Below are positions 3,522 to 53,959 of a stretch of 64,000 bases of DNA, in pieces (position 1 is the stretch's first letter; every line of letters begins with the position of its first letter). A model generated the notes under the pieces. The model was given only the letters and a program-made list of their open reading frames with translations, was not told where the DNA came from and did not search any database. Source of the DNA: an uncultured Flavobacteriales bacterium (GTDB lineage Bacteria; Bacteroidota; Bacteroidia; CAIKAF01); assembly GCA_903837495.1 (NCBI GenBank), contig CAILUT010000059.1, forward strand, positions 8,037 through 72,036, written 5' to 3'. The translations under genes and the position numbers were made by a program.

Positions 3522-3992
3522 CTAGGAATTGGATTGAAGCTGTTTTAGGATTCGGACGGCTTCTGAAATGTGTTTCTGGATGTTCATTTGACTTGAAAAC
3601 ACGTGTTTGATTTCGCCGTATTTATTGATAACAAAAGTCGTTCTGCCGGGCAAGACCATCAGCGTTTTAGGCACACCAAACATTTTACGAACTCGGCCCA
3701 GGGAATCGCTCAACAAGGTAAAAGGGAGTCTGTTTTTTTCGGCAAATTTTATGTGGGCTTCGGCAGAATCGGAGCTGATTCCAATAACCAACGCACCCAG
3801 CTCCAAGAACTGTTCATAGGAATCTCGAAAGCATTTTGCTTCAGCGGTACAGCCAGGTGTATCGTCTTTGGGGTAGAAGTAAAGAACCACGGATTGATTG
3901 GCCCGGAAATCCGAGAATTTAACAACCTGTCCGTGCTGATTTTTTAGCACGAAATCGGGTGCAAAATCTCCAACTGTAAGGGCTTTTGTCAT
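3522..3992 (-). CDS. bcp: thioredoxin-dependent peroxiredoxin Bcp
   Basis: 156-aa ORF in the AhpC/TSA family, with the peroxidatic Cys in YFYPKDDTPGCT. Confidence 0.9.
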   Translation of the reverse strand: MTKALTVGDFAPDFVLKNQHGQVVKFSDFRANQSVVLYFYPKDDTPGCTAEAKCFRDSYEQFLELGALVIGISSDSAEAHIKFAEKNRLPFTLLSDSLGRVRKMFGVPKTLMVLPGRTTFVINKYGEIKHVFSSQMNIQKHISEAVRILKQLQSNS

Positions 3993-4180
3993 GGGTATTG
4001 AATGGGTTCTAATTAGGAACAGCGAAAGTAGCCGTATAGTTAAGACACTTGGGTTTTGAGCCCGTTAAAACTTGTTAATGCGAAGAATACCAAGCAGATT
4101 GCTTTTTGATTTCGGGTGCATAGATGTTATTTTAAACGAATGTAGGGCAAGTGCCAAATCGAAAAGAGTATCTTTGAATT

Positions 4181-5410
4181 ATGCGTGGAATTGTAATTGA
4201 AAACATCCGAATGGCAACTAAGTCCTTGGCTAGTCAGCTATTAAGGACAATTATAACCATATTGATTATTGGTTTTGGAATTATGTCGCTGGTTGGAATG
4301 CTGACGGCCATAGATGTGTTGAAACAGAGCATCAACACTACTTTTGCTGCTTTTGGAAGCAATTCGTTTACCATTCAAAACAGGGAATTTTGGCAGAATA
4401 AAGGTCAAAAACAAAAGCCACACCCATCCATTCGATATTCAGAGGCCAAGGCATTTAAGGATCGGTTTGTATTTCCTACGCTGGTGAGCATTAGTTCTGT
4501 AGCAACGCGCACGGGAGTGGTTAAAAGTGGGTCGAAGAAAACCCACCCGAAGATTATGGTGATGGGAATTGATGAGGGGTACTTAGAGGTAGGGGGATTT
4601 GGATTGAAGAAAGGGAGGAATTTTTCGCAGCAGGAACTACAACAAGGAAGTCCTGTGGCCATTATTGGACAGGATATCGCCAAGACGCTTTTTCCGGGCG
4701 AATCGTCTCTTCAAAAATCAGTTTGGGTTGGAAAGGTTCGCCTAAAGATTGTTGGTGAAGTTCAAGAAAAGGGAGCTGGAGGTGGCATAAGCAACGACCG
4801 GCAGTTGTTTGTTCCCTTGCGGCAACTGCAAATGTATTTTTCGGGCGATAACGCATCGTATGTAATTACAGGTCGAACCAGTTCAGCGGCTTTACTAGAT
4901 GAGGCCAGCAGCGAAGCCGTAGGCTTATTTAGGTCCATTCGAAAGGACAGGGCCGGCGAACAAGATTCATTTGAAATTGAAAAGAGCACGGGTTTGGTTG
5001 GGCAGGTTTTGAGCATGACCACCTACTTGAGGTTGGGAGCATTTGCTGTGGCTTTAATAACCTTGATGGGTGCAATGGTTGGGCTTTTAAATATTATGCT
5101 GGTATCGGTTACCGAACGAACTCGGGAAATTGGAGTCCGAAAGTCTTTGGGTGCCACCCGCCGAAGCATTGCGCAACAGTTTTTGATTGAGGCCGTAGTA
5201 ATCACTCAAATTGGAGGGCTAGTGGGAGTTCTTTTGGGCTTGGGTCTAGGGAACTTGGTTTCCGTTTTCTTGGGGGGAACCTTTTTGATTCCTTGGAATT
5301 GGATAGCACTGGCTTTTATTGTTTGTTTTATTACCGGTGTAGGTGCTGGATTGTATCCGGCGATTAAAGCGGCAAAGATGAACCCGGTGGACTCGCTGAG
5401 GTATGAATAA
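4181..5410 (+). CDS. ABC transporter permease, MacB/FtsX family
   Basis: 409-aa ORF with an N-terminal TM, a large periplasmic domain and a C-terminal FtsX-type TM bundle (ERTREIGVRKSLGA). No ATPase gene is adjacent. Confidence 0.85.
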   Translation: MRGIVIENIRMATKSLASQLLRTIITILIIGFGIMSLVGMLTAIDVLKQSINTTFAAFGSNSFTIQNREFWQNKGQKQKPHPSIRYSEAKAFKDRFVFPTLVSISSVATRTGVVKSGSKKTHPKIMVMGIDEGYLEVGGFGLKKGRNFSQQELQQGSPVAIIGQDIAKTLFPGESSLQKSVWVGKVRLKIVGEVQEKGAGGGISNDRQLFVPLRQLQMYFSGDNASYVITGRTSSAALLDEASSEAVGLFRSIRKDRAGEQDSFEIEKSTGLVGQVLSMTTYLRLGAFAVALITLMGAMVGLLNIMLVSVTERTREIGVRKSLGATRRSIAQQFLIEAVVITQIGGLVGVLLGLGLGNLVSVFLGGTFLIPWNWIALAFIVCFITGVGAGLYPAIKAAKMNPVDSLRYE

Positions 5411-5439: not shown

Positions 5440-6678
5440 ATGGGAACCCTTGTGCACAACATTGGCCAATTGTGGATGGCGATACCTGGAGAACGTGCTT
5501 TAGGCGGTGTTGAAATGTCAAAGTTGCAGCCTATAGAGAACGCTTGGTTTCGAATCAGGGATGGCTTCATTTTCGATATAGGTCAGGGGGTGCCCCCGGA
5601 ATTGAATTCAGGTGAGCAGATTGTGGATTGTGAGGGAGGATTGGTGATGCCTGGATTTTGTGACAGCCATACCCATGTTGTTTTTGCAGATTGGCGGCCT
5701 GAAGAGTTTTTGCAGAAAATTCGGGGGATGAGCTATTCTCAAATTGCAGAGGAAGGCGGTGGTATTTTAAATTCGGCCAAAAAGGTAGGACAAGCCAGCC
5801 CATCCATTTTATTTGAAAGGGCCAAGGAACGGGTACTAGAGACCATAGGCTTTGGAACGGCCGCCATAGAAATAAAGAGTGGGTATGGTTTAAGCCTTGA
5901 ATCGGAACTAAAAATGATGCGTGTTATCGCAGATTTAAAATCGTGGGCACCTATTCCAATCAAGGCCACCCTGTTGGGAGCCCATGCCCTTCCTTTGGCA
6001 TTTAAAAACAACCGTCAGGCTTACATTCAGATGGTGGTTTCTGAATTGATACCGGCCGCAGCTGCCGAAGGCTTGGCCGATTACTTCGATGTGTTTTGCG
6101 ACCAGGGTTTTTTTAGTCAGCAAGAGACGGAAACAATGCTAGAAGCCGCATTAAAAGTTGGAATGCGCCCTAAGATTCATGCCAATGAATTGGGTTTGAC
6201 GGGAGGAGTCCAAGCCGGATTGAAATACAAGGCTTTGTCGGTTGACCATTTGGAACATCTCGGTGAATCTGAAATCAGTTTGCTAAAACAGGGTCAAACG
6301 CAACCCACCTTGCTTCCAAGTACGGCCTTTTTTCTAAAAATTCCTTATCCTGACGGGCGAAGGTTGTTGGACGAAAATTTACCGGTAGCGCTGGCTACCG
6401 ACTACAATCCAGGAAGTTCACCCAGCGGAAATCCATGGTTTGTATGGTCTTTGGCCAGTATTTTCATGAAGTTTGAACCTGTTGAAGCGCTTGCTGCATT
6501 AACGTTAAATGGAGCCCATGCGATGGAGCTTGGAACCGAACATGGGTCTATTTGGCCCGGTAAAACGGCCTCGTTTATTGTTTTGCCCAGCCTAAATTCC
6601 TTGTCAATGGTGCCCTACCGTTTTGGTGGCGGTTTTAGGTATAGGGTTTTTATTAAAGGTGAGGAGTGGTTGGCATAG
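5440..6678 (+). CDS. hutI: imidazolonepropionase
   Basis: 412-aa ORF with the amidohydrolase HxH motif (CDSHTHVVF) and HutI-like blocks (KIHANEL, ATDYNPGSSP). Confidence 0.87.
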   Translation: MGTLVHNIGQLWMAIPGERALGGVEMSKLQPIENAWFRIRDGFIFDIGQGVPPELNSGEQIVDCEGGLVMPGFCDSHTHVVFADWRPEEFLQKIRGMSYSQIAEEGGGILNSAKKVGQASPSILFERAKERVLETIGFGTAAIEIKSGYGLSLESELKMMRVIADLKSWAPIPIKATLLGAHALPLAFKNNRQAYIQMVVSELIPAAAAEGLADYFDVFCDQGFFSQQETETMLEAALKVGMRPKIHANELGLTGGVQAGLKYKALSVDHLEHLGESEISLLKQGQTQPTLLPSTAFFLKIPYPDGRRLLDENLPVALATDYNPGSSPSGNPWFVWSLASIFMKFEPVEALAALTLNGAHAMELGTEHGSIWPGKTASFIVLPSLNSLSMVPYRFGGGFRYRVFIKGEEWLA

Positions 6679-6742
6679 CCTCGGGTTGTGTATGAAGAAG
6701 CGAAATCAAAATGGCTGACTATCTTTGTACATAATCCGAATT

Positions 6743-7735
6743 ATGAGAGTTACGTCGATTTTATTCGCTGCCCTTGTTTTTGGCCTGTTTTCTTGTTCAG
6801 GCGAAGACCCGATTCCTGTTGATACCTATTTTCAAGGCAAGTCTATTTACTTGAGCAGCGACATTGATGGTAAGCATCAAATTTACCGTTGGACACCGGA
6901 TTCCTTGGTGCGGATCACGTTTGATCTGGATTACAATTTTTGGTGGCCACGTTGTCAGCCTAATGGAGACCGGCTGATTTGCTTTAGAGGGCCCTTGATG
7001 AATGGATTAAGTACGAGCACACTTTGGCGGTTTAAAAAAGATGGGTCGCAAGGGGAAATGCTGATTGACCCGAATGATTATGGATGGTTTGGCATGACGT
7101 CTGCCAACTATTCTCCCGACGGGCGCTGGATTATATTGGCCGCAGAAGTCATGGATTCGTTGATTGGAGATGAGCGGTGGCATTTGTTTGTATGCGATAG
7201 CTTGGGGGATAATCCAAAACGAATTACGCCTTGGGGCAGAATGTATTACGACCCTTCGTTCAGTAAATCAACCCCCTTTGGGATTGTTTATTCGGCTTGG
7301 CCGGATGGAACGCTTGAGCCATTTACCTACAACATTCGTTGGAGTTTAGAGGTGCACACCGCCAAAATTGATACCAGCGTCTGGCAGCTTGTGGATGAAG
7401 TTCGACTCACCGATGACGATGTGTTGAATTCTACCCCCATGCAAACCTCAAATGGCCAACGCATTGTATTCTCGTTCGTGGAAGATCAAATCAATCCAAG
7501 CACCAAAACCAATGTTCACTCGGTATGGACCAACGGCACGGAGAATGTGCAATTGTTGCGCGATGGCCGAGCCAATTACCACCCTTGCTGGACGCCAGAC
7601 GACCAAAATATTGTTTTTCAGCGTGGGGAGTTCGGATTGTATTCGTTGTATGCAATTCGTTCAACCGGAGGCGGATTGGTTCGAATATTAGGCGACGACA
7701 GCCATAATTTTGTACAGCCGTACGTCGAAGATTAA
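6743..7735 (+). CDS. lipoprotein with PD40/TolB-like beta-propeller repeats
   Basis: The track ORF begins at a TTG (6725). The ATG at 6743 gives a lipoprotein signal, MRVTSILFAALVFGLFSC. There are PD40-like repeats (YSPDGRWIILAA, WTPDDQNIVF). Confidence 0.6.
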   Translation: MRVTSILFAALVFGLFSCSGEDPIPVDTYFQGKSIYLSSDIDGKHQIYRWTPDSLVRITFDLDYNFWWPRCQPNGDRLICFRGPLMNGLSTSTLWRFKKDGSQGEMLIDPNDYGWFGMTSANYSPDGRWIILAAEVMDSLIGDERWHLFVCDSLGDNPKRITPWGRMYYDPSFSKSTPFGIVYSAWPDGTLEPFTYNIRWSLEVHTAKIDTSVWQLVDEVRLTDDDVLNSTPMQTSNGQRIVFSFVEDQINPSTKTNVHSVWTNGTENVQLLRDGRANYHPCWTPDDQNIVFQRGEFGLYSLYAIRSTGGGLVRILGDDSHNFVQPYVED

Positions 7736-18210: not shown

Positions 18211-18354
18211 GTGCGGCAGGGATTGAGCAGGGTAGCGCGCAAACCGGTGGGGTATGGGGGCGCTAGGCGCGGAGGCGACTTTAGGAGCCCCCGCAAGCCA
18301 GCTGCCCCCAAACCCTACCGGTGCGTACTACCCGCGAAAGCCCGTCTGCCGCCC
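18211..18354 (+). repeat. GC-rich structured intergenic repeat, copy A
   Basis: The 5' end is GTGCGGCAGGGATTGA and the 3' end is GAAAGCCCGTCTGCCGCCC plus an A-rich tail. The central block is AGGCGACTTTAGGAGCC. Internal helices are complementary (see findings). Confidence 0.9.
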
Positions 18355-29062: not shown

Positions 29063-29158
29063 GTGCGGCAGGCAGGATTGAACCGAGAGCCCGCAAAGCA
29101 GAACGGTCATGGGCCCGTGTGCTGCAGACCTACCGGAAAAAGCCCGTTGCCCGCCCCC
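29063..29158 (+). repeat. GC-rich structured intergenic repeat, short copy B
   Basis: It shares the 5' end GTGCGGCAGGCAGGATTGA and the 3' end AAAAGCCCGTTGCCCGCCCCC, but lacks the central GGCGAC..GGAGCC block. Confidence 0.75.
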
Positions 29159-32595: not shown

Positions 32596-32740
32596 GGGCG
32601 GCAGCCGGGCTTTCAGGGGTTGTCCGCGGTGGCCGGAAGGCGGGCCCAGCGGGCTTGCGGTGGCTCCTGAAGTCGCCTCCGCGCCTCGCGGGCCCGGCTC
32701 CGGCCCCCTTGCGGGCAACTCCCTTCAATCCCTGCCGCAC
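32596..32740 (-). repeat. GC-rich structured intergenic repeat, copy C
   Basis: The reverse complement carries GTGCGGCAGGGATTGA ... GGAGGCGACTTCAGGAGCC ... GAAAGCCCGGCTGCCGCCC plus an A6 tail. Confidence 0.9.
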
Positions 32741-32954
32741 AACCCAACAAGCGTTTCCGTGTTGATTTTGCCAACCCCGGGCCGAACTCTTCGGGCCTTA
32801 TCGCTTTTGCCAATCCAATCCAACCCCGGCATGAAGGTAAGCCTAAGGGACCGGCAATTTTCAGCCGGCTTTAACTCATCTTAAAAGCAGCAGAACTTTA
32901 AGGTAGGCAAGGGGAGGCCTTCCCGAACCGTGCCGTTTTGTTTTTCGAACTGTT

Positions 32955-33811: not shown

Positions 33812-34945
33812 TTAAACCGGCATCTCCATTACCTCATAGGTTTTGTAAATTTCGCCGCCAATATTGAGCAGCGGCCGCTTCATGGGCTCGTTGTCTTCTA
33901 CAATGTAGCTGGCTTCGGCCCAAGTCGCGCCCCGTTCCATTCCGCGCTGTGTAATTTGCAAATACATCAAGGCATCTAAGCCTTTTCGTTGGTATTCGGG
34001 CAAGACCCCTAGAATAACAATTCGAACGCATTTTATTTTTTTGGCCTTGGTAAACATATCTATCCAATTAAAAGGGAATAAATTGCCTTTCCACGACCGA
34101 AACACTTCGTTGTAATCGGGCAGGCAAATGCAACCTCCAACCACCTCGCCATCTACTTTGGCCAGCATGACCAGCCGGGGGTCCGTAATCTGCTTTAAAT
34201 CGGTGGTTATGTGGTCAAATTCCGCATCGGTTAAGGGGACCCAGCCGTGGTTGTTTACTGTGGTCCAGGCTTTATTAAACAAGCCCCTAAAGGTTTTTAC
34301 TCCTTCGTCAAACTGTTTCATATCTAAATTCACCAATTCGAACTTTAGCCGGTACTTTAGGGCCGCTTCAATCCGGTCAATGCGCTCCCGGTTCTTTTCC
34401 AGAATTTTAATTCCATCAAACCGAAAGGCGAACAATTTTTTGATGGGCTGCAAACCATAGGCCAAGTACAAGGAATAATACCAACGAGCGTTGTAGGTCG
34501 ATAAAATCACATGTTGTTCATCAAAGCCATCAATCATGACTCCATAGTCTTCGTTTGATGAGGGACTGGCGGGACCGCGCATGTGGGTATAATTTTGTTC
34601 TTTCAACCAGTTTCGTGCTGCGTCCAACAAGGCTTTTGATACCTCAACATCGTCAATGCATTCAAAGAACCCAAAAAAACCAACCCGATCTTTCCAGGTT
34701 TCGTTGTGCAGGTGATTGATGATTGCGGCTACCCGTCCCAGCACCTGTCCCTGCCTTAGGGCAATAAAGGCCTGCATTTCTCCGTGCTGAAAAAAGGGGT
34801 TTTTGTCTTTTTGAAAGACTTTTCGGTAACTGCTTTTTAGGGGAGCAACCCATACCGGGTCGTTTTTATACATTTTCCAGGGAAAAAAAATGAATCGTTC
34901 CCAATCCGATTTGCTTGAAACGGTTTGTATTGTTATGTGGCTCAT
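33812..34945 (-). CDS. GNAT-like N-acetyltransferase family protein
   Basis: It has a GNAT motif A-like segment (VILGVLPEYQRKGLDALMY). I prefer the ATG at 34945 (MSHITIQ). The substrate is unknown. Confidence 0.5.
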   Translation of the reverse strand: MSHITIQTVSSKSDWERFIFFPWKMYKNDPVWVAPLKSSYRKVFQKDKNPFFQHGEMQAFIALRQGQVLGRVAAIINHLHNETWKDRVGFFGFFECIDDVEVSKALLDAARNWLKEQNYTHMRGPASPSSNEDYGVMIDGFDEQHVILSTYNARWYYSLYLAYGLQPIKKLFAFRFDGIKILEKNRERIDRIEAALKYRLKFELVNLDMKQFDEGVKTFRGLFNKAWTTVNNHGWVPLTDAEFDHITTDLKQITDPRLVMLAKVDGEVVGGCICLPDYNEVFRSWKGNLFPFNWIDMFTKAKKIKCVRIVILGVLPEYQRKGLDALMYLQITQRGMERGATWAEASYIVEDNEPMKRPLLNIGGEIYKTYEVMEMPV

Positions 34946-37103: not shown

Positions 37104-37171
37104 TGGAGTGTAAAAGTATGCAAAAGCTTTTACTGGGCACTTTAAATCGGTGTAGGTTTGATGATTTACGA

Positions 37172-37313
37172 GCGGCAGGGATTGAACAAGGTAGCCCGAA
37201 GCGTTCCGGGCTCTGGCCCGCGTGCCGCGCAGGCGACCTTGGGAGCCCGCGCAAGGCCGCTGGGGCAGTTCCCGGCACGCGAGGACTACCTGTGAAAGCC
37301 CGGCTGCCGCCCC
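37172..37313 (+). repeat. GC-rich structured intergenic repeat, copy D
   Basis: GCGGCAGGGATTGA ... CAGGCGACCTTGGGAGCC ... GAAAGCCCGGCTGCCGCCCC plus an A7 tail. It is preceded by TAGGTTTG at 37153-37160. Confidence 0.9.
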
Positions 37314-37402
37314 AAAAAAATCCAAAACCTTATAATTGGCTGTATTTTTTTAGTGCTTGGGGGCTAAAAATCCGTTCTGGGCGCAAGCAGGTGTGCCGCC
37401 GG

Positions 37403-41537: not shown

Positions 41538-41610
41538 TGGTACCAGTTGGAATCGAACCAACGACACAAGGATTTTCAGTCCTTTGCTCTACCGACTGAG
41601 CTATGGTACC
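41538..41610 (-). tRNA. tRNA-Phe (anticodon GAA)
   Basis: The reverse complement is GGTACCATAGCTCAGTCGGTAGAGCAAAGGACTGAAAATCCTTGTGTCGTTGGTTCGATTCCAACTGGTACCA. It folds as a cloverleaf with anticodon loop CUGAAAA and T-loop GGTTCGATTCC. CCA is not encoded. Confidence 0.93.
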
Positions 41611-53808: not shown

Positions 53809-53959
53809 GGGCGGCAGCCGGGCTTTCAGCGCTACTCCGCGGCTCTAACCGGGCCGCTGCATGGGCAAAAGGAGCTCCCAAGGTCGCTCTTTTTCCCAAG
53901 CAGCGGCAGCCGGTCAGCCCCTTGCGGGGTAGCTGCTTCAATCCCTGCCGCAGCCGCAC
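53809..53959 (-). repeat. GC-rich structured intergenic repeat, copy E
   Basis: The reverse complement carries GTGCGGCT-GCGGCAGGGATTGA ... AGAGCGACCTTGGGAGCTC ... GAAAGCCCGGCTGCCGCCC plus an A-rich tail. Confidence 0.9.

Follow-up and report, generated by a model that had tools for sequence, protein, structure and literature searches.

Five GC-rich elements of one kind are scattered over a 64,000-nt stretch of contig CAILUT010000059.1 (assembly GCA_903837495.1), from an uncultured Flavobacteriales bacterium of the lineage CAIKAF01, and they raise the question of whether such rods are a structured RNA or a piece of mobile DNA. The whole stretch is referred to below as the window, and the element, whose complete unit is a hairpin of 143 nt, as the 143-nt element. 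A sequence-only reading of the window had offered both answers, a candidate new structured non-coding RNA and a non-autonomous repeat. Here we describe the family to which the five copies belong and propose, with moderate confidence, that the 143-nt elements are a REPIN-like repeat mobilised as a single-stranded DNA (ssDNA) hairpin by an unlinked Y1 HUH transposase of the RAYT type (REP-associated tyrosine transposase). The element is not a new RNA class. Of the roles first considered for it, that of a non-autonomous repeat, providing ssDNA hairpin sites to an unlinked recombinase, is the one that finds support: the copies are dispersed, their boundaries are exact, one related genome has amplified them recently, relatives have empty sites and, in related genomes, RAYT-type genes adjoin copies.

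A dispersed repeat with exact ends

A covariance model of 143 positions and 54 pairs, called R1, was run on the whole window with filters off and, together with a motif search, placed the five elements where they had first been read. Copy A (18212-18354, plus strand) is a full-length 143-nt hairpin unit that matches model positions 1-143 with 149 bits. Copies C (32596-32739, minus strand; 139 bits), D (37171-37312, plus strand; 127 bits) and E (53809-53952, minus strand; 121 bits) are full-length units as well. Copy B (29064-29156, plus strand), taken earlier for a short variant, is instead a decayed copy, matched at 28 bits (E 1.6e-5) with a large internal gap; it keeps both ends, has lost about 53 nt from the interior of its 5' arm and folds no better than shuffled sequences (z +0.9). 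Beyond these five, R1 gives no match in the window. A 14-nt 5' motif, an 18-nt 3' motif and a 16-nt central block occur four times each in the window, where fewer than one is expected by chance, and none of 100 shuffles reaches the observed counts of end and centre motifs. The distance from the 5' to the 3' motif is 108-110 nt in all four full copies of the window. A common 5' end had been described, and the shared motif is indeed there; the exact start GTGCGGCAG does not extend to copies D (GAGCGGCAG) and E (GCTGCGGCAG). The G+C content of the elements is 67-76%, above the 47% of the window as had been noticed.

An exact-pattern scan of one genome per species gave at least 101 loci, about 94 of them with true members. 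These loci amount to 0.77 Mb of DNA from at least 15 Bacteroidota genomes and yield at least 130 matches to R1, nearly all of full length. Among the matches listed, many copies fall in three freshwater Flavobacteriales bins (CAIKAF01, VGMT01 and JAQCBQ01), and further carriers are Bacteroidales, Draconibacterium (including the cultured D. mangrovi GM2-18), Mariniphaga and other bins. Pattern matches in Krumholzibacteriia, Chthoniobacterales and Clostridia were rejected as chance, the centre and the 3' end being absent. R1 was also run on 0.96 Mb of Bacteroidota DNA collected in a metagenome scan by the Zn-peptidase gene that neighbours copy C; that scan returned only relatives at 50-60%, and in this set, mostly of distant relatives, copies occur only in the near relatives L192 and L194. 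The family is widespread but patchy. Literature searches, with the sequence as well as with keywords, brought up general REP/RAYT papers only and no account of this family, which is apparently a large, previously undescribed one of hairpin repeats of Bacteroidota.

The boundaries of the unit are given by a young subfamily in the VGMT01 bin, whose copies are 94-97% identical. When ten of these copies are aligned with their flanks, homology spans only GCGGCAG to GCCGCCC and the flanks are unrelated; since near-identical copies share this span alone, the copied unit is exactly the element described from the window. The interiors had been judged too diverged for a recent spread, which is true of the window and not of this related genome. 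The two ends are imperfect inverted repeats, GCGGCAG-GGGATTGA at the 5' end and, as the reverse complement of the 3' end, GCGGCAG-CC-GGGCTTTC, and the spacer between them is constrained in length and variable in sequence. The unit starts with YGCGGCAG, and neither foot has GTAG or GTGG. Putative local hairpins at the ends (GCGGCA...TGCCCGC and GCGGAC...GCCGC) were seen by eye; solitary ends are rare. In a Chryseobacterium bin, L068 holds at 6013-6049 (plus strand) a 37-nt mini form, GCGGCAGGGATTGAAGTGGAAAGCCCGCAGCCGCC, which scores 39 bits and joins the conserved ends directly, the rod being absent; a second block resembling the 3' end lies about 80 nt past it.

Downstream of the unit the DNA is A/C-rich: over 126 copies, G makes up 0-8% of positions +1 to +17. 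The 3' flank of copy D (37313-37335, plus strand; CAAAAAAATCCAAAACC...) is an example, A/C-rich, G-depleted and outside the copied unit. This flank differs among copies that are 94-97% identical and is therefore not copied with the unit; it probably reflects a target-site preference. With G and T prevailing in the 5' flank and A and C in the 3' flank, the two can pair, which is a matter of composition and not of structure: an extension of the hairpin into the flanks was rejected, same-copy flanks pairing no better than mismatched ones (p 0.20).

No significant target-site duplications accompany the copies, as had been reported for the window; a few direct repeats of 7-9 bp occur in the flanks, with no excess over mismatched flank pairs (p 0.10). 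This bears on an ordinary miniature inverted-repeat transposable element (MITE), an internally deleted derivative of a DDE insertion sequence moved via its terminal inverted repeats. The family resembles such an element in being short, multi-copy and intergenic, with inverted ends and a recent amplification in one genome. We consider a MITE very unlikely: target-site duplications are missing and near-identical copies have unrelated flanks, the inverted ends match exactly over 7 bp only and then give way to asymmetric modules, and structural constraint covers the whole length, not the ends alone. In the DNA examined there is no longer element that shares these ends and no DDE transposase between or beside copies, and collections of plasmids, phages and viral contigs hold no true match for the 143-nt element. 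The exact boundaries, the A-rich 3' flank that is not faithfully copied and the occasional 7-9-bp direct repeats would also suit a retroposed RNA resembling a short interspersed element, in which a processed 143-nt RNA is tailed and reverse-transcribed into A/T-rich targets. We find this barely credible, the direct repeats being no commoner than in mismatched pairs and not abutting the 5' end of the unit, the tails being A/C heteropolymers and not poly(A), and no reverse transcriptase or promoter having been seen.

All copies are intergenic. Among 86 copies with both neighbouring genes called, 28 lie in sense and 26 in antisense to co-directional genes, 25 between convergent and only 7 between divergent genes, so that orientation is mixed, as it had seemed from five copies, and divergent promoter regions are avoided. 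The median distance between the 3' end of the element and a converging stop codon is about 26 nt, and the 5' end often follows a terminator T-run. In the window, copy A is flanked on both sides by minus-strand genes, copy C lies between convergent genes for an FAD oxidase and a Zn peptidase, 28 nt from the stop codon of the former, copy D has LptC-like and CNNM/CorC genes beside it, both on the minus strand, and copy E is co-oriented with both its neighbours. These neighbours are ordinary chromosomal genes, several of them with a type IX secretion system (T9SS) sorting domain, from which it follows that the organism belongs to Bacteroidota. Some copies form head-to-head pairs with their 5' ends facing, 55-85 nt apart (L007 1078-1421; L019 1606-1977, equal to L086; L038 1658-2021; L059 3484-3827). 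Such pairs typically stand between convergent genes, with their A-rich tails abutting the stop codons. No autonomous partner lies between the paired elements, the only genes found being those for SmpB, AhpC and similar ordinary proteins.

With 8-kb GC-skew windows as a proxy, the strand of the element coincides with the locally G-rich one in 60 cases and with the other in 37 (p 0.025), a weak bias; this fits exposure on the lagging-strand template and is not proof of it. The GC skew of the window itself drops from +0.18 to -0.14, with the maximum of the cumulative skew near 32-36 kb, a turning point that could mark the replication terminus region or the boundary of an old inversion.

Gain and persistence of copies can be followed at orthologous sites. 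Within the window's species copy C is fixed, as ten metagenome contigs show, and it has an orthologue in L192, whose neighbouring protein shares 95% identity. The site is empty in L194 and L197, relatives with 79% and 75% identity: the convergent genes overlap in L194 and are separated by a 53-nt bidirectional terminator in L197. An extra copy in L059, compared with L040, stands directly after a terminator T-run. Where bins have flanking genes 80-89% identical, the same intergenic sites are occupied, by copies that range from 96% to about 65% identity. We interpret this as a history of rare insertion, long persistence and partial overwriting by gene conversion, with selection for the fold. Between copy C and the stop codon of the Zn-peptidase gene lie about 215 nt of non-coding DNA (window 32741-32954), which have no counterpart in L194 or L197; L192 has about 830 nt of unrelated spacer there.

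A RAYT-like gene beside the elements in related genomes

A scan of all collected DNA for HuH...Y motifs gave two RAYT candidates, and both lie beside copies of the element. The first, in the CAIKAF01 contig L037 (4780-5412, plus strand), encodes a Y1 HUH protein of 210 amino acids in which DHFH, WQ and YIHQNP are the motifs. A match to Pfam Y1_Tnp is joined by one, at 68 bits against a cut-off of 80, to the NCBIfam model REP_Tyr_transpos ('REP-associated tyrosine transposase'), and homologues of the protein are named RayT in their sources. A profile of the family, searched against solved structures, finds E. coli TnpA-REP (4ER8) best, with an E-value of 5e-7, IS200-type enzymes reaching E-values of 0.08 or more; a search with the single sequence against the same structures gave no match, and only the profile succeeded.

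Genes of this type are single-copy and occupy one syntenic locus, adjoining a reprolysin-family protease gene, in five contigs (L037 4780-5412, plus strand; L198 371-1006; L199 1843-2487; L200 4001-4678; L201 317-1048), with 66-92% amino-acid identity among their products. A full element lies 157-214 nt upstream of the RAYT gene in all four contigs that reach far enough (L037, L198, L199 and L200), and in L201 the upstream copy is cut by the contig end. The upstream site holds an inverted pair of elements, of which the plus member is intact in L198-L200 and the minus member in L037, the other being a remnant in each case; a different member has thus decayed in different lineages. The second RAYT, from Bacteroidales (L069, and L204 as a 92% relative of it), is 27% identical to the L037 type and has an element 146-168 nt downstream.

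A Bacteroidetes-specific RAYT subclass, 2.6, has been described with the Y motif YIH[QN]NP and with flanking 'atypical secondary structures' that are without GT[AG]G and have copies elsewhere in the genome (PMC6006769). Table S1 of that work contains no structure that matches the sequence of the 143-nt element.

The fold and the strand that carries it

The consensus fold is a single unbranched rod of 54 pairs. In the window, either strand of the full copies A, C, D and E folds into a rod, with z from -4.0 to -7.75; copy A, at -97 kcal/mol, has the z of -7.75. Two alignments were used, one made by MAFFT from 104 copies and one fitted to the model from 128 distinct copies, the latter favouring structure by construction. 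Paired cells amount to 86% in the MAFFT and 90.5% in the model-fitted alignment, compared with 67.5% and 67.6% after shuffling and with 37-48% and 36-49% when the partners are slid. Cells changed on both sides number 954 against 306 in shuffles for the former and 1367 against 392 for the latter, and such change is seen in 44 and 52 of the 54 pairs, respectively; none of 500 shuffles reaches the observed values in either alignment. The covarying helices read from the five copies are therefore real, and on 104-130 copies the covariation is stronger than five could show.

The ends of the unit are conserved, as copy D illustrates. Its 5' end (37172-37185, plus strand) consists of the closing-helix strand GCGGC, an A, GGG and the internal-loop strand ATTGA, and pairs with 37294-37310; these columns are 93-99% conserved over 126 copies. 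The 3' end (37294-37312, plus strand) is made up of the loop strand GAAAG, CCC, the bulge GGCT, the closing-helix strand GCCGC and a final CC. The base of the rod has throughout a variable bulge of 3-4 nt on the 3' strand, the position occupied by GGCT in copy D, a GGG/CCC helix and a symmetric loop of ATTGA opposite GAAAG, whose non-Watson-Crick pairs are A.G/U.A/U.A/G.A/A.G. The 5-bp closing helix covaries in distant members (GCGGC/GCCGC, CTGGC/GCCAG, GTGGC/GCCAC), and copies of the young VGMT01 subfamily, whose interiors are almost the same, show compensated differences in the helix beside the basal loop. Further in, copy D has a helix of 37219-37227 with 37273-37281, at the coordinates given for it before. 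The conserved blocks TAGCCCGCAAGG and CCGCGGACTA each contain an AA bulge.

The tip reads GGC-GA-C(NNNN)G-GA-GCC, with tandem G.A pairs below a stable tetraloop; in copy D (37232-37247, plus strand) it is GGC-GA-C(CTTG)G-GA-GCC, the tetraloop being closed by a C-G pair. In the family as a whole this loop is either of a YUUR type (CTTG, TTTA) or of a GNRA type (GTGA, GCGA), and its first and last positions covary, with 51 C:G and 47 U:A. Copy E has an apical subtype, AGAGCGAC...GGAGCT, that also occurs in L058 and L059. Two diverged copies in L194 (GCA_018401695.1; 4461-4606, minus strand, and 7431-7582, plus strand; 40-61 bits) both have ATGGA opposite GAGAG in place of ATTGA/GAAAG, which is a coordinated change at a non-Watson-Crick position. 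The resulting A.G/U.A/G.G/G.A pairs correspond to the set in the E. coli 5S loop E. Two other likenesses were rejected: a K-turn at the basal loop, the bulge not being adjacent to the tandem G.A pairs, and, by eye, tRNA-like ends (a T-arm-like TCAATCCCTGCCGC and a 3' NCCA), for which the T-stem partner is absent and the CCA inconsistent.

These properties bring in the most serious of the rival explanations, that the rod is mainly a functional RNA kept by host selection, with mobility secondary. It would be either a cis-acting module of untranslated regions (for stability, processing or protein binding) or an independent small RNA (sRNA) that binds a Bacteroidota RNA-binding protein through its conserved loop-E-like loop and tetraloop. 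The strong covariation speaks for it, as do modules that look like those of RNA: a loop-E-like loop that changes in step from AUUGA/GAAAG to AUGGA/GAGAG, and a tip that is either a CUUG or UUUA loop or a GNRA tetraloop. One strand has an excess of purines at unpaired positions and in helix mismatches, of which 376 are purine-purine and 147 pyrimidine-pyrimidine, so that the strand as written is probably the one whose fold matters, as RNA or as ssDNA. Almost all copies are full length, and copy C is fixed in its population. At orthologous sites the fold and the motifs are retained where the flanking non-coding DNA can no longer be aligned, and such copies differ from each other mostly by double changes that preserve pairing (11, against 4 single ones, between window copy C and L192, and 14 against 4 between L033 and L087).

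What is known of transcription signals and strand nevertheless counts against an RNA product. A multi-copy sRNA family, read from GTGCGGCAG to CTGCCGCCC and transcribed from its own -7 promoter, had been suggested, the box being TAGGTTTG at 37153-37160 upstream of copy D. The box is at that position in copy D and is not a feature of the family: TAnnTTTG occurs within 78 nt upstream in only 7 of 107 copies, at scattered distances, and is commoner downstream. No T-run follows the hairpin on either strand, the 3' flank being A-rich and not T-rich, which also rules out a role as intrinsic terminator. With sense and antisense copies at 28:26, the conserved strand would be made in only about half of them. 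The G-T bias that had favoured one RNA strand in the window copies is not general in the larger set. G.U and A.C pairs stand at 125:132 in the MAFFT alignment, at 127:125 in the model-fitted one (in which two columns hold 52 of the A.C cells) and at 70:174 in strand-neutral arm-to-arm alignments; without those two columns the model-fitted alignment shows a mild G.U excess, which it favours by construction. Nor does the ratio follow orientation, at 16:29 with both neighbouring genes running in the direction of the element and 32:32 with both running against it. The loops CTTG and TTTA and tandem G.A pairs are stable in DNA as well. Covariation alone does not indicate RNA, because REPINs reportedly show compensatory change too (PMC3116915), and a functional RNA would leave the adjacency to RAYT genes unexplained. 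Taking both sides together, we hold an RNA function as the main role to be unlikely.

That Rfam 15 has no matching family still stands: the window was scanned both at the gathering thresholds and with relaxed E-value limits, and copies C and D were scanned by themselves under looser filters, which gave only chance scores of at most 17 bits. Above the gathering threshold the window yields a tRNA only (41538-41610, minus strand; 76 bits), whose anticodon loop CUGAAAA gives the anticodon GAA and hence Phe; a weak Plastid-ycf2 match on the opposite strand is its mirror image. A weak match to Methylobacterium-1 RNA at 34256-34346 (minus strand; 25 bits against a threshold of 40, E 3.8) is most likely chance.

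Under the REPIN-like reading that we prefer, a chromosomal, single-copy Y1 HUH transposase of the RAYT type, encoded outside the window, would recognise the folded single-stranded element, probably when the DNA is exposed at the replication fork. It would cut at the foot of the hairpin, and the unit would be pasted, without target duplication, into A/T-rich DNA beside the 3' ends of genes and terminator T-runs. Further rounds would be open only to copies in which the fold and the recognition modules are intact, which would explain the covariation of the helices between subfamilies; selection for continued mobility would in this way maintain both the fold and the modules. Copies would then persist for long at orthologous sites and be partly overwritten by gene conversion from other copies.

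Several observations weigh against this reading. Besides the purine asymmetry and the RNA-like modules, the conservation of copies at orthologous sites beside unalignable spacer could reflect selection for a host function instead. The mean identity of copies within a genome is only about 70%, far below that of typical REPIN populations, and the elements are without the GT[AG]G tag of canonical REPs. The bias in GC skew is weak and comes from 8-kb windows. The 64-kb window contains no RAYT motif. The link to RAYT genes amounts to two, perhaps three, independent events of adjacency, and L202 and L203, which hold more distant homologues of the Bacteroidales RAYT, have no element within 3 kb of them. 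Short REP-like hairpins, finally, occur in and around both RAYT genes: in L037 at about 5050-5200, between the HuH and Y motifs (GGGGCAGAC..GTCTGCCCC and GGGGCGAAC..GTTCGCCCC), and in L069 at about 3560-3760 and 3960-4010, where repeats of TGCAGGGACGTTGCA stand between the HuH and Y motifs and also after the stop codon. These short hairpins could be the true partners of the RAYTs, or a second family, of short REPs, on which the same enzymes act.

A combination of the two views has, in our estimate, a small chance of being right. The rod would be a phylum-wide structured module that hosts keep at gene ends, its folded plus strand, as RNA or ssDNA, binding a conserved factor through the loop-E-like loop and the tip of tandem G.A pairs and tetraloop, and the RAYT would do no more than seed and renew copies. 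If true, this would be a REPIN-RAYT partnership with a structured nucleic-acid function in Bacteroidota, a phylum not known to have Hfq or ProQ.

Known relatives and significance

The closest likeness of the 143-nt element is to the REPIN/REP-RAYT systems of Pseudomonas fluorescens and to the BIMEs of E. coli (PMC3116915). REPINs are inverted doublets of REP sequences, repetitive and extragenic, in tens to hundreds of copies; they have conserved inverted ends, a less conserved spacer of constrained length and a hairpin formed by the whole unit, and compensatory changes are common in them (PMC3116915). Like the family described here, they are long-lived, vertically inherited and without target duplications, and copies flank a single-copy, syntenic Y1 HUH transposase gene, here in related genomes only (PMC3116915). 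The 143-nt element differs in its greater length (143 nt, 54 bp), its fixed non-canonical modules, conserved tip and A/C-rich, G-poor 3' flank, in a far higher diversity within genomes and in its host phylum, Bacteroidota. Of the features of a REPIN-RAYT system it shows the repetitive extragenic palindrome, the inverted ends about a spacer of fixed length with compensatory change and, in related genomes, the adjacency to a RAYT gene; the GTAG tag is missing, as it reportedly is in the Bacteroidetes RAYT subclass too (PMC6006769).

With that subclass, 2.6 (group 5 of Bertels), the RAYT that adjoins the elements shares YIH[QN]NP, WQ and the insertion between HuH and Y, and the flanking structures likewise lack GT[AG]G and have copies elsewhere, one of them, in Belliella, being a long hairpin of 122 nt (PMC6006769). 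The structures of subclass 2.6 are, however, mostly hairpins of 24-35 nt with a GCTAG or GCTGG tag; the RAYT described here has DHFH in place of NH[LIV]H as its HuH motif, and the 143-nt architecture is absent from that work (PMC6006769). A canonical REP family of the GTAG type does coexist with 143-nt elements in one case, the K_DeepCast bin, where L033 has three GTAG-type REP hairpins (GTAGAGACGCAACATGTTGCGTCTCTAC) at 5909-5941, 6668-6687 and 7381-7413, after small genes.

Other dispersed palindromes are alike in kind. ERIC/IRU elements of enterobacteria and Correia/NEMIS elements of Neisseria are imperfect intergenic palindromes of about 100-150 bp that lie close to the ends of genes in either orientation; different species share them with high conservation, and if co-transcribed they can act at the RNA level. 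We set them beside the 143-nt element by description only; they belong to different phyla and are without this set of fixed internal modules, and Correia elements have 26-bp inverted repeats and TA duplications. For ERIC we know of no transposase. The ends of IS200/IS605 elements and their derivatives, the PATEs, are closer in mechanism, in that the enzymes belong to the Y1 HUH family and recognise ssDNA hairpins, transposition is coupled to replication, and there are no duplications or long inverted repeats. They differ in having two different small subterminal hairpins and in inserting 3' of a fixed tetra- or pentanucleotide; the 143-nt unit is one whole hairpin, and its flank preference is compositional.

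Folded single-stranded recombination sites of a tyrosine recombinase, of the attC type of integrons or of the Xer type, were also considered. In attC sites, too, structure is conserved and sequence variable, the ends are conserved, extrahelical or mismatched bases are fixed and the active form is one folded single strand, and the length of the element is within the attC range. We nonetheless judge such a site highly improbable. The copies are single, dispersed and in both orientations, not in the same-orientation arrays that stand behind cassettes; their ends are GCGGCAG and GCCGCCC, without the RYYYAAC/GTTRRRY (R and L) core sites used by IntI; and no integrase lies nearby in the window, the neighbouring enzyme that was found being a Y1 HUH transposase.

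GC-rich rods of this kind will recur as candidates for 'novel ncRNA' in Bacteroidota genomes and metagenome bins, for which a name and a model are useful, and the elements may break assemblies. REPIN-RAYT systems have been worked out almost entirely in Proteobacteria. The 143-nt family is a concrete candidate partner for the Bacteroidetes RAYT subclass, of which the literature consulted says only that 'atypical secondary structures' flank it. Its unit has exact boundaries and is described by a covariance model, its non-canonical modules are fixed, and gains, losses and replacements of its copies are dated. The family provides a test case for a Y1 HUH enzyme that would read a long structured hairpin without a GTAG tag, and for the question of which selection, for mobility or for host function, lies behind covariation in a dispersed repeat.

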